A stretch of DNA of 64,000 nt from positions 224,001 to 288,000 of the forward strand of contig BK006946.2 in the NCBI GenBank assembly GCA_000146045.2. The letters are read 5' to 3'. The notes under the pieces are model-generated. The model had not been told where the DNA came from. It was given only the letters and a program-made list of their open reading frames with translations, and searched no databases. Both the position numbers and the translations under genes were made by a program. The stretch is from TPA_inf: Saccharomyces. Its lineage: Eukaryota. How positions within the stretch are numbered: position 1 is the stretch's first letter; each line of letters opens with the position of its first letter. Shown in pieces: positions 11,953 through 14,731 of the stretch.

Positions 11953-12587
11953 GGCTCTGTTGAACTTTTATCTGAGAGAGGAAAAAAAGGAAGGAAAAAA
12001 AAGAAGAAACTTCCTTTATTTATTTGTCTTAACCACAACACACAATGCAATAAGATGCAATATAATATCAAAGCCAATATCTTATGTTGCTGATCCTGAG
12101 AAGGAATATATACAATTTATGTAGTAAAATACCTTTTCTTCTGCGAGTTGCAAGAAATAGAAAAGACTCCGATTGCGCATCGCCAGAATAAAATTTCACA
12201 ACCACACTTTTTGGCTGAACTTTTTATTACCTGATTAAACAGAGAGAGAAAAGGTAGAGGTCAAAATTTTTTAAGCAAAACTAAAAAAGATGCAAAATCA
12301 CGTGCTGAAAATCTAACATAAGGGTTAAGATTAGAGTTTTATAGGACTTGTTTTGTAATATTTCAAATACGAGCTAACCCTACTGATTTCAATTAGGTCT
12401 AATTTAGGGTTGAGCTGCACTGAAATTTCGGAAATTTTGGGTTATTTTAAATGAGACAGAAGAACTACAGAGATACGTTCTTCAGACTTTAAAGCTTATC
12501 TCCACAAAGAATTGGTCAAGAAATCATCCTAGAAAAACACGTTTGCTCACTCGATCTTAATCACATAGAGTGCTGGAACGGGAAGAA

Positions 12588-14731
12588 ATGGGTATGTGCC
12601 TCGGTTTTTCTCATTAACCCCTTTTGATCCATAACGGTCCTCTTTTGTTTCCTTTTTTTTTTTTGTTTTAGTATTTTATGTTTACTATTTTCTTCTGTTT
12701 CAGTCATACGTAGGAATTATTGCATGAAAGAGGATATAATATTCATGTGGATTTTTAAGAAAATAGATCAAGTTTAAATAGCCACTAACAATTGAACAAT
12801 GCTCTCTCTTGGCCTCTTTTCTTCTTTTTTATCGTTTCTCTAAAAATCAAGCTGATTAGACATGGTCTTGCAATGTTTTTGCTTTCTCTAATCAGCTTGG
12901 TTTTCCGCAAAGAAGAGAAAGTCACGGAATTGTCTACATATGTTTCTATTCAGGAACAAATAATACATCTAATAATAATGGCACTACGAAGAAAATGTCC
13001 CTAGAAGAATTTCTAGGGAACGACACTTTAGGCGAGTCAGTATGGGATGAGGAAGATATTAATTTGGATGCTATAAGCAATACTACGAATATTGACATCT
13101 TGAAACAAACCAAGGCAGGCGAACATCAACGTGATGGTCACCAACAGCACCCACACGGTGGTCATGGACCCATGAACAGATCACGTTTTTCTAATGCAGG
13201 GCCTTTTGGTGGTGGTAGCATGGGGGACTTTGCAAATCATCACCACCCGCTGCAGCATCAGCAAGGTCCTCCTTATATTGTGAAGTTTTCTGATTTACCA
13301 CCGAGATTTTCCAACTTTGACATTGAAGATCTTTTTCAAGCAAAGTTTACCAAGTTTATTAAGTTCAAACTGTTTTGGGAGATAAATAAAAATCCAAGTA
13401 TTTCTACTTTGAAATCGGGGTCAATCTTTGATCAAAATTTCAAACGTGACTCGAAGGTAGCATTTGTCGAGTTATATACATCCCGTGATATGGACAAAAT
13501 TTTGAACTATTGGACCACTCCTTTGAAGGAAATTTACCACATTACAACAGCGCCCGCAGAATTCGAAGATTTTAAGGATTACAGCACGAAGGTGAAATTA
13601 TTAACAGACCCTAAAGACGATGCTGGCAAACCATTCATTACTAAGACTCAGCGGTCAAAATCCAATCCTTTTGGAAGTGCTAAACCGGTTGATACGCAAT
13701 CGAAGATTTTGGACATTGAAGAAAAAATGGAAAATTTACACGTGGAAGATACAACAACCCTGAGGGCATCATTAATCCCTAGTAGTGATTCTATGGCAAC
13801 CACTGCAACAGGCAGCAAGATCACAATCTTGAAAAAGCAGACACCTACAGAGGAGGAATCACATTCTGCAACCCCAACTCCCAAACCTTTAAGTTACTCT
13901 GAAGTAGTTGAGAGATCTGTGGTCAATGAAACTTCCAAGAAAGGAACTCCATTAAGCAAGCTTGACTCACCAGCTCTTGAACTACAATCTAAGCCCGATA
14001 AATCGGACGAGTTCAAAGGTGGCGATGAACAAGGCTTTGAGAAAGGTGGCGACGATAAAGCTCAATTAGATGTCTCAAATGATAAAGATAAAGGTTCAGA
14101 AACCGATGTTGATAAACAGTTCACTTTCAAGAATGTGGAAAGGGAACATAGTATGAGCAGAACCAAATATAACGGAAACCATAATAACAATAATGGCAAT
14201 TTTAGAGGGAGTAATAGATATCGTGGAGGCCCCAATGGCAGCAGTTATAAAGGTGGGCATAACAATCGTGGTAATCGCGGCGGATATCGTGGTGGCAGCT
14301 CATACAACAACAACAACAACAACACTAATGATAATAATAATAATAATAATAATAGTAGTAGTAATAATAATAACGGTTCAAGATATCATGATCGACAAAA
14401 CAATGAAGAAGGGTTAACCTCGGATTCATCTTTAGATGCCTCAGGAAATAAAAAGAATGATTTCACGAACTCAACATCCAATACACAACAATATTCCATT
14501 TTCAAACCAGCAAGTGGGTTCCTTGGCCAAGGTAATAATGATTCTATAAGGAACAATGGACGCGGTAACTATAACAGCAGCGGTATGAATGGAGGTTCGA
14601 GAGGAAGAGGATTTGGCAGAGGAAGGGGATTTGGCAGAGGCGCATATAACAATCGAGGTAGTCGTGGTGGACGTGGAAGCAGCGGTAACTACTCCAACTA
14701 CAATAACAGAACAACAGACATGCCTTTATGA
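12588..14731 (+). CDS. PSP2: Asn-rich RGG-motif protein Psp2, 593 aa; exon 1 12588..12591 (ATGG), exon 2 12954..14731
   Basis: ATGG|GTATGTGCC donor at 12588-12597; acceptor CAG at 12951-12953 keeps the frame into the 578-aa track ORF. RGG/RGGY repeats and poly-N tracts near the C-terminus. Confidence 0.85.
12592..12953 (+). other. PSP2: PSP2 intron (362 nt); only branch-point-like element is CACTAAC at 12783-12789, about 165 nt upstream of the acceptor; perfect 13-bp inverted repeat 12848-12860 / 12887-12899 lies in between
   Basis: GTATGT donor; acceptor chosen by frame continuity; inverted repeat read directly. Confidence 0.75.
14300..14380 (+). repeat. PSP2: Coding trinucleotide repeats (AAC)n/(AAT)n/(AGT)n encoding the PSP2 poly-Asn/Ser tract
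   Basis: caacaacaacaacaacaac...ataataataataataataat...agtagtagt. Confidence 0.9.

Follow-up and report, generated by a model that had tools for sequence, protein, structure and literature searches.

How does the intron of Saccharomyces cerevisiae PSP2 (YML017W) bring its 3' splice site to the second step of splicing, when the branch point lies 165 nt upstream of the acceptor and seven AG dinucleotides intervene between the two? The window analysed here, a stretch of 64,000 nucleotides, is S. cerevisiae chromosome XIII sequence, for which a coordinate offset of 224000 is consistent with the published position of the PSP2 intron (chrXIII:236591-236953, 362 nt in the published table). On the forward strand, which carries all of the gene features described below, the start codon ATG (12588-12590) belongs to a first coding exon that consists of ATGG (12588-12591), listed in the literature as AUGG, and is followed by a 362-nt intron (12592-12953) that begins with the 5' splice site GTATGT (12592-12597) and ends with the acceptor CAG (12951-12953). 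Splicing of ATGG to position 12954 onward yields an open PSP2 frame of 593 amino acids, beginning MGTNNTSNNNGTTKKMSLEEF, and an mRNA contig of S. eubayanus type (L123) has the orthologous junction, ATGG|GAACG, at the same place. For S. cerevisiae mRNA contigs, an exact look-up of the 593-residue protein matched genomic records only.

The branch point and its distance from the acceptor

A scan of the intron for heptamers with at most two mismatches to TACTAAC and with A at position 6 returned two matches, CACTAAC and CATTAAC, the latter of which is unusable as a branch point because it lies 26 nt from the 5' splice site. CACTAAC (12783-12789) is consequently the sole usable heptamer of this kind, as an earlier sequence-only reading of the window had proposed, and the distance of about 165 nt given there is exact when counted from the branch adenosine, A12788, to the acceptor G12953. 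The intron thus lies well within the distant-branch-point class (branch point to 3' splice site >50-60 nt). In the alignment of three species, S. kudriavzevii and S. eubayanus share the heptamer without change, and with it the whole of CACTAACAATTGAACAA, which runs from the heptamer onward, while the 10 nt on its 5' side differ by one change in the S. eubayanus sequence and by a one-base indel in that of S. kudriavzevii. Two S. kudriavzevii strains and two S. eubayanus sources all keep the spacing at 162-166 nt. Figures given by Gahura et al. (2011), in which UBC13 at 155 nt is second longest and the maximum for the genus is 166 nt, imply that PSP2 probably has the longest branch point-acceptor gap known in S. 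cerevisiae. It is probably the most extreme natural test of the reach of the yeast spliceosome between these two sites.

A spacing so extreme for S. cerevisiae raises the question of whether CACTAAC is a decoy and a non-consensus branch point near the acceptor is used in its place; PSP2 goes unmentioned in the main texts of two lariat-sequencing papers (Qin et al., 2016; Gould et al., 2016). Such a site is nevertheless highly improbable: no heptamer within two mismatches of TACTAAC is found in the intron downstream of 12789, CACTAAC and the 10 nt that follow it (AATTGAACAA) are invariant in the three species with the long spacing retained, and ACTAACAATTG recurs as the predicted branch-point motif of the Naumovozyma dairenensis orthologue.

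A predicted three-tier rod between branch point and acceptor

The spacer contains a perfect inverted repeat, in which CAAGCTGATTAGA (12848-12860) and TCTAATCAGCTTG (12887-12899) are 13-bp reverse complements around a 26-nt loop. This repeat, already noted in the sequence-only reading, is borne out by shuffling, since 1500 dinucleotide-shuffled versions of the intron gave a perfect repeat of 13 bp or longer (loop 3-100) at a frequency of about 0.002, and it lengthens to 18 nt of 94% complementarity (12843-12860 paired with 12887-12904), with a G.U pair as the sole non-Watson-Crick position. In the predicted minimum free energy (MFE) and centroid folds, it forms the apical tier of a 122-nt rod (12807-12928, -36.3 kcal/mol), the apical hairpin folded by itself having -25.0 kcal/mol. 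Beneath it, a middle helix, in which 94.6% of the cells are paired in the alignment, joins a U-rich tract, UUUUCUUCUUU (12817-12827), to a purine-rich strand, AAAGAAGAGAA (12909-12919), which is conserved in the three Saccharomyces species and is paired with P 0.90-1.00 in every folded context. The basal helix is formed by UCUUGGC (12807-12813) and GUCA.GGA (12921-12928), and the same helix is present in the three-species consensus. The region from the nucleotide after the branch point to the 3' splice site has a predicted folding energy of -38.3 kcal/mol (z = -3.27), with none of 200 shuffled sequences being as stable, and the stem is recovered, as had been expected, when 12780-12960 is folded (z = -3.34).

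The MFE structure of S. cerevisiae leaves an exterior path of 14 nt from branch point to 3' splice site, compared with 28 nt for S. kudriavzevii and 42 nt for S. eubayanus. When the rod alone is considered, a hand count on the predicted structures shortens the S. cerevisiae path from 165 to about 44-51 nt, which is within the working range of about 55 nt or less, a property that is not distinctive, since at least 98% of same-composition shuffles come down to a path of no more than 50 nt. The 13-bp hairpin had previously been credited with this shortening; the direction of the effect is upheld, but the hairpin alone removes 62 nt and would leave a path of about 104 nt.

The seven intervening AG dinucleotides are distributed over two tiers of the rod. 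Three lie in the apical arms, at 12850-51 (AAG, 12849-51) and 12858-59 (TAG, 12857-59) on the 5' side and at 12894-95 (CAG, 12893-95) on the 3' side, in accordance with the earlier suggestion that the hairpin sequesters three AGs. The remaining four, at 12911-12921, had been described as unpaired (given there as several AGs in 12909-12925) but are instead predicted, in the MFE, centroid and ensemble structures alike, to pair with the U-tract at 12817-12827: the AGs at 12911-12, 12914-15 and 12916-17 are part of the 3' strand of the middle helix, and that at 12920-21 adjoins it. Pairing was computed in five sequence contexts of up to 560 nt with the same outcome in all of them, namely that both bases are paired at P >= 0.9 in six of the seven AGs and the G only in AG 12920-21, so that each of the seven has at least one base in a stable pair. 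No AG occurs between 12922 and 12951, which leaves the used CAG as the first one 3' of the rod. The choice of acceptor, which the sequence-only reading regarded as anomalous with respect to first-AG scanning, is therefore explained if the rod forms. The proposal in the same reading that this choice depends on structure holds in that the spacer is predicted to fold, but the 13- or 18-bp hairpin alone does not account for it. In these models, it is the full 122-nt rod, rather than the eye-catching perfect repeat alone, that hides the decoys and shortens the path, the last four decoy AGs being concealed by the U-tract/purine-tract helix.

A reading in which lack of pairing sets the authentic CAG apart was also considered and rejected, since this held only when the fold ended at the splice site. 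Once exon 2 is added, a weak hairpin predicted across the intron/exon 2 junction (UGUUUCU-AUUC-AGGAACA, 12941-12958, -4.3 kcal/mol) takes up the authentic AG as well, and the contrast is therefore one of stable versus weak pairing, rather than of paired versus unpaired.

Taken together, these features make it probable that PSP2 is a distant-branch-point intron that is both bridged and masked by a three-tier rod of the predicted form. U2 would pair with CACTAAC and the lariat would be formed at A12788, while the 165-nt spacer would fold into an imperfect rod of three stacked helices, cutting the through-space path to a length within the reach of the yeast spliceosome and enclosing each of the seven intervening AGs within stable helices; CAG 12951-12953 would then be presented for the second catalytic step. 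Formation of the fold in vivo, and the dependence of splicing upon it, are suggested by analogy with COF1 and UBC13, whose stems are required for splicing according to both disruptive and compensatory mutations (Gahura et al., 2011, NAR 39:9759, PMC3239191). If so, PSP2 would represent a clean case in which RNA folding takes the place of both distance and 3' splice site fidelity.

The likeness to COF1 and UBC13 is extensive. In all three introns, the branch point-3' splice site distance is far past the roughly 55-nt working limit, the intervening AGs are within the (in PSP2, predicted) stem with the first AG after it serving as the acceptor, and the arrangement appears to be conserved in Saccharomyces sensu stricto. 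The kinship with structured yeast 3' splice site regions that had been surmised from the sequence is thus sustained, PSP2 matching the COF1/UBC13 class by distance, predicted fold and AG masking, and figures in Gahura et al. (2011) imply that it was part of the set modelled in that work. There are also differences, in that the COF1 and UBC13 stems are backed by mutational tests whereas the PSP2 rod is known from prediction, and in that the latter has three tiers, large internal loops and a low-complexity U-tract/purine-tract middle tier. Structures reported by Rangan et al. (2025, NSMB, PMC12350175) share both the location and the proposed roles of the PSP2 rod (distance shortening and cryptic 3' splice site occlusion); PSP2 itself is present in the coverage table of that study, with a replicate r2 of 0.495 and no DMS-guided structure listed. 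PSP2 is unmentioned in a paper on Prp18 (Roy et al., 2023) and in a 2025 preprint on intron structure, and a literature search for mutagenesis, structure-probing or lariat data on PSP2 found none.

Structure in this intron has been predicted before. In Hooks et al. (2016, Genetics, PMC4937481), a structure in the PSP2 intron is predicted by at least two programs, with conservation restricted to Saccharomyces sensu stricto, and is treated as a candidate non-coding RNA with 'no previously suggested function'. The structure described here is placed in the branch point-3' splice site spacer and read as an element that bridges the distance to the 3' splice site and masks competing AGs. Structure in the PSP2 intron, and in the class to which it belongs, is accordingly ordinary and already known, and our finding confirms the textbook picture rather than changing it, because the principle has been established with COF1, UBC13 and others and PSP2 had already been flagged as structured.

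Conservation, composition and splicing behaviour

The comparison set comprises five sequences from three species (S. cerevisiae, S. kudriavzevii and S. eubayanus), a protein-database search with Psp2 having returned clusters from S. cerevisiae, S. kudriavzevii and S. eubayanus/pastorianus, and none from S. mikatae, S. paradoxus or S. uvarum. A metagenome scan with the 17-mer CACTAACAATTGAACAA gave 120 loci, only one of which was PSP2, from S. cerevisiae. At the sequence level, identity in the spacer (77-80%) is on a par with that in the coding exon (79-84%) and exceeds that in the upstream intergenic DNA (70-72%). The consensus fold of the three species keeps the three tiers, with 92.9% of the cells being paired versus 35-60% when the partners are slid relative to each other. 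Outside S. cerevisiae, however, the 13-bp core is no longer perfect, being interrupted by a bulge and mismatches in S. kudriavzevii and by several mismatches in S. eubayanus, while among the five sequences a single pair shows a two-sided change and no measure of covariation rises above shuffled controls. Conservation of the repeat, which the sequence-only reading had set as a check, gives a mixed result, in which the perfect repeat is confined to one species and compensation is no better than in shuffles, but the overall fold is retained.

Composition must also be considered. Of the same-composition shuffles, 41-53% leave no AG less than half paired, and because shuffled sequences also mask AGs and shorten the path in this way, both properties largely follow from the U-rich composition and constitute non-specific evidence. 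Similarly, stability beyond that of shuffled sequence is seen in S. cerevisiae alone among the three species, the folds of S. kudriavzevii and S. eubayanus showing no excess over dinucleotide shuffles (z = -0.99 and -0.20, respectively). The usual computational arguments (masking, shortening and z-score) are hence weak for PSP2, as composition alone gives the same.

A further conserved element is found in the 26-nt apical loop (12861-12886), where a 12-nt sequence, CATGGTCTTGCA (12861-12872), is invariant at the 5' end in the three species while the flanking stem varies. This raises the question of whether the structure is regulatory, instead of or besides being a bridge, acting as a thermosensor or a protein site (possibly for Psp2 itself, an RNA-binding protein with a role in autophagy) that tunes splicing or retention under stress. 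The published intron retention without inhibitor, 0.195, is fairly high and suggests that splicing of PSP2 is not very efficient, which also counts against the bridging rod, and both spliced and unspliced PSP2 RNA, as well as an exosome-associated signal, are recorded by Hooks et al. (2016). A weakened UBC13 stem, moreover, makes 3' splice site choice temperature-dependent (Gahura et al., 2011). The predicted stability in PSP2 is -45.4 kcal/mol at 30 C and weakens to -33.3 kcal/mol at 42 C, yet a rod of about -33 kcal/mol is still very stable. The APE2 intron reportedly functions as a thermosensor, in which secondary structure sets the effective branch point-3' splice site distance and the accessible AG, and is said to use alternative 3' splice sites in a temperature-dependent manner, whereas for PSP2 no alternative junctions were detected under standard conditions. 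YML017W is listed among the genes without alternative junctions both in wild type and upon upf1/2/3 deletion (Kawashima et al., 2014, Table S4), that is, even without nonsense-mediated decay, a listing that also favours the bridging and masking rod. The literature search returned no binding or stress data, and no Rfam family matched within the intron. A regulatory role is, on balance, very unlikely. The only Rfam match at E <= 1 lies outside the intron and on the minus strand, and is to SNORD26 (12477-12534), its 20 bits falling below the gathering score of 44.

Origin of the long spacer

Orthologues of PSP2 in four other genera have an intron at the same position with a predicted branch point-acceptor distance of 17-26 nt (N. 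dairenensis 26 nt, K. africana 17 nt, T. globosa 17 nt and E. gossypii 21 nt). By this comparison, the long spacer is a derived, Saccharomyces-specific expansion of a short ancestral one. The N. dairenensis intron reads AACTAAC-AATTGTCTAAAATTTTTCTATTAAG|G, and that of S. cerevisiae can be read as CACTAAC-AATTG[138 nt]TCTACATATGTTTCTATTCAG|G, in which AATTG occurs at 12790-94 and again at 12928-32; when the 138 nt are taken out, 27 nt are left.

This alignment, together with the short spacing in the four genera, suggests an alternative in which the rod arose chiefly as a by-product of evolution, a 138-nt (approximately) insertion or duplication in a spacer of about 26 nt having been tolerated because it was self-complementary and U-rich, with the stems not being individually selected. 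The behaviour of the same-composition shuffles, the lack of significant covariation among the three species and the failure of the S. kudriavzevii and S. eubayanus folds to exceed shuffles in stability are all compatible with such a history. Against it stand the conservation of the spacer at the level of coding sequence and the retention of the three-tier register in the three species. Nor is the insertion itself clearly delimited: the second AATTG is imperfect in two species (S. kudriavzevii has AATG, S. eubayanus GATG), and the aligner offers an alternative internal match (TTGTCTAAAA). In addition, the 138-nt segment has no other copy or similar element within the 64-kb window. A by-product is thus an unlikely, though not negligible, explanation, and one that concerns the origin of the rod, being compatible with a present-day need for the fold. 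An interpretation of the AATTG/AATTG pair as a target-site duplication was rejected on account of the imperfect second copy and the alternative internal alignment.

The bridging and masking rod favoured above can be combined with an origin of this kind. It is possible, although we consider it doubtful, that the intron records the birth of a distant-branch-point intron, in which roughly 138 nt, gained by insertion or internal duplication, came to divide a spacer of about 26 nt and, being self-complementary, drew its two halves together again, so that splicing survived. As parts of this same tentative scenario, the ancestral spacer would have been of the form ACTAAC-AATTGTCTA...TTTCTATT-YAG, still seen in Naumovozyma, and the inserted sequence would have brought with it extra 3' splice site-like copies (GTTTCTCTAA..TCAG). 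A role for the loop can also be envisaged in this scenario, and its invariant CATGGTCTTGCA may since have gained a sequence-specific function.

Layout of the PSP2 intron

The locus corresponds by sequence match to S. cerevisiae PSP2 (YML017W), with its start ATG at 12588-12590 and a coding part of exon 1 that amounts to ATGG (AUGG in one published table). The intron (12592-12953) begins with GTATGT at 12592 and terminates with CAG at 12953, is given in another published table as chrXIII:236591-236953 (362 nt), and its removal, joining ATGG to 12954, yields an open frame of 593 aa starting MGTNNTSNNNGTTKKMSLEEF. If the intron is retained, the ATG opens a 9-codon uORF (12588-12620; ATG GGT ATG TGC CTC GGT TTT TCT CAT TAA), after which the first in-frame Psp2 start is Met16 at 12995; the retained-intron fraction is 0.195 (~20%) without inhibitor (Rangan et al., 2025, PMC12350175, Supplementary Table 1).

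Past the first 30 nt of the intron, CACTAAC (12783-12789) is the sole heptamer with at most two mismatches from TACTAAC, and its branch A (12788) lies 165 nt from the acceptor G. In the intervening spacer, the 13-mers 12848-12860 and 12887-12899 match each other perfectly as reverse complements, with 26 nt of loop between them, which confirms both features as they had been described in the sequence-only reading. The repeat lengthens to 18 nt at 94% complementarity (12843-12860/12887-12904), the single exception being a G.U pair. Of 1500 dinucleotide-shuffled versions of the intron, 0.2% contain a perfect inverted repeat that is 13 bp or longer. Seven AGs lie upstream of the used CAG (12951-12953), three in the hairpin arms and four at 12911-12921. 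A second perfect inverted repeat, of 8 bp (TCCTCTTT/AAAGAGGA, 12638-12645/12727-12734), is found in the stretch from the 5' splice site to the branch point; its arms are invariant in three species, within longer conserved blocks, and it may act as a 'zipper stem' shortening the 197-nt distance between these sites.

A predicted rod in the branch point-acceptor spacer

Stems of this type are required in COF1 and UBC13, as established by disruptive and compensatory mutations, where they reduce the branch point-acceptor distance and mask proximal AGs (Gahura et al., 2011, PMC3239191). Since UBC13, at 155 nt, was ranked second for this distance in that study, with a genus maximum of 166 nt, PSP2 is almost certainly the longest case and part of the same set. 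YML017W is also one of the introns for which a structure shared across Saccharomyces sensu stricto has been predicted, with spliced and unspliced forms detected and no function suggested at the time (Hooks et al., 2016, PMC4937481). 'Downstream stems' have since been defined in vivo by Rangan et al. (2025), who report coverage, retained-intron fraction and replicate r2 (0.495) for PSP2, its structure not being given. The PSP2 intron appears to be an already catalogued member of the known class of structured distant-branch-point introns. A literature search for lariat mapping or mutagenesis of PSP2 yielded nothing, and the intron matched no Rfam family.

The AGs downstream of the hairpin, at 12909-12925, had been taken as unpaired, leaving the acceptor choice unexplained by first-AG use. 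In the predicted fold, a middle helix instead joins a run of purines, AAAGAAGAGAA (12909-12919), to the U-rich tract UUUUCUUCUUU (12817-12827), below which 12807-12813 and 12921-12928 form a short basal helix. Together with the apical hairpin (-25.0 kcal/mol by itself), these give a 122-nt three-tier rod of predicted -36.3 kcal/mol, in which six of the seven AGs have predicted pairing probabilities of 0.90-1.00 at both bases (at 12920-21 the G alone is paired), and this AG pairing is unchanged from 165 nt to 560 nt of folded context. Because AG is absent between 12922 and 12951, splicing uses the first AG past the predicted rod, and with the full rod considered the AGs thought to be unpaired no longer pose a puzzle. 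The hairpin proposed earlier does hold three AGs in its arms, but by itself would shorten the path only in part, to ~104 nt; the whole rod would bring it to ~44-51 nt (hand counts on predicted structures), which would fall inside the working limit of roughly 55 nt (Gahura et al., 2011). In agreement with effective masking, YML017W is listed among the genes that lack alternative junctions, both in wild type and in strains deleted for upf1/2/3, and its RPKM is unchanged (Kawashima et al., 2014, Table S4).

A small, weak predicted hairpin (UGUUUCU-AUUC-AGGAACA, 12941-12958; 7 bp, -4.3 kcal/mol) spans the junction with exon 2, and every fold that takes in exon 2 has the authentic AG paired within it (P 0.87-1.0); its base pairs are maintained in S. 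kudriavzevii and S. eubayanus. In the model, the contrast for the authentic AG would be that of a -36 kcal/mol rod with a -4 kcal/mol hairpin, rather than of paired with unpaired sequence.

Conservation and shuffle controls

Orthologous loci came from four sources: S. kudriavzevii ZP591 and IFO1802, S. eubayanus FM1318 and an S. eubayanus-like metagenome contig. All contain ATGG/GTATGT and CACTAAC, the latter followed by an invariant AATTGAACAA, with branch-to-acceptor distances of 162-166 nt. A further 2044-nt contig (L123, Logan SRR23107900), an RNA-derived assembly in an otherwise mostly genomic collection, is spliced PSP2 mRNA of S. eubayanus type (...AAATGG/GAACGAAT...) and confirms the junction ATGG/GAACGAAT for that lineage.

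A similar rod is predicted in every species (-34 to -39 kcal/mol), with the intervening AGs nearly all paired, and the RNAalifold consensus has three tiers, with standard pairs in 92.9% of pair cells versus 35-60% after the partners are shifted by 1-3 columns. Spacer identity (77-80%) is comparable to that of the coding exon (79-84%), upstream intergenic DNA being lower (70-72%). Only S. cerevisiae has the 13-bp core in perfect form; it is interrupted by a bulge and mismatches in S. kudriavzevii and by several internal loops in S. eubayanus. A single pair shows two-sided change, and none of the covariation measures surpasses the column-shuffle control. At the 5' end of the apical loop, 12 nt (CATGGTCTTGCA, 12861-12872) are invariant in three species while adjoining stem positions vary, a conservation that seems to exceed the needs of a passive loop.

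Fold stability exceeds that of dinucleotide shuffles in S. cerevisiae only (z = -3.27, versus -0.99 in S. kudriavzevii and -0.20 in S. eubayanus). Among composition-matched shuffles, 41-53% have every AG at least half paired, and at least 98% have an exterior path of 50 nt or less; purines are scarce in the U-rich spacer and therefore seldom lack a partner. AG masking and path shortening are consequently compatible with the model yet non-discriminating, as shuffles do likewise. The computational support is weaker than at first sight. Structure-dependent acceptor use, the general proposal of the sequence-only reading, is the best-supported interpretation.

Other genera and the origin of the long spacer

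The intron position, after ATGN, is common to several genera. Predicted branch point-acceptor distances are 26 nt in N. dairenensis (L129 1344-1471), 17 nt in both K. africana (L130 1366-1450) and T. globosa (L131 1393-1471), and 21 nt in E. gossypii (L128), these L-numbers denoting loci of the relatives; in Monosporozyma servazzii (L127 1631-1731) the distance is 101 nt from TACTAAC, or 63 nt via an alternative TACTAAT. As most of these predicted values are 17-26 nt, the 165-nt spacer is derived in Saccharomyces. M. servazzii represents a second lineage with a long spacer, where a 10-bp stem (UAUUCAAAUA/UAUUUGAAUA) surrounds the alternative TACTAAT in a weak fold (-11.7 kcal/mol, z = -0.8). 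The introns of N. dairenensis, K. africana and T. globosa, with predicted splice signals, are unannotated: PSP2 is annotated there from an internal Met (MSLEEF...), and splicing of the apparent 79-128-nt intron right after ATGN would give an in-frame N-terminal extension resembling that of S. cerevisiae (MSTNNGGATKKMS... and similar).

The N. dairenensis arrangement AACTAAC-AATTGTCTAAAATTTTTCTATTAAG/G compares with CACTAAC-AATTG...[138 nt]...TCTACATATGTTTCTATTCAG/G in S. cerevisiae, whose spacer minus 12795-12932 is 27 nt. The second AATTG is imperfect in other Saccharomyces species and an internal TTGTCTAAAA aligns too, and because the boundaries of the added segment are uncertain, insertion and internal duplication are indistinguishable; the 138-nt segment has no further copy within the 64-kb window. 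Segments resembling the 3' splice site recur in the spacer (CGTTTCTCTAAAAATCAAG, GCTTTCTCTAATCAG, TGTTTCTATTCAG; 12828-12843, 12876-12891 and also 12941-12953), which hints at growth by duplication of an ancestral polypyrimidine/YAG region. The core AATCAGCTGATT is nearly palindromic.
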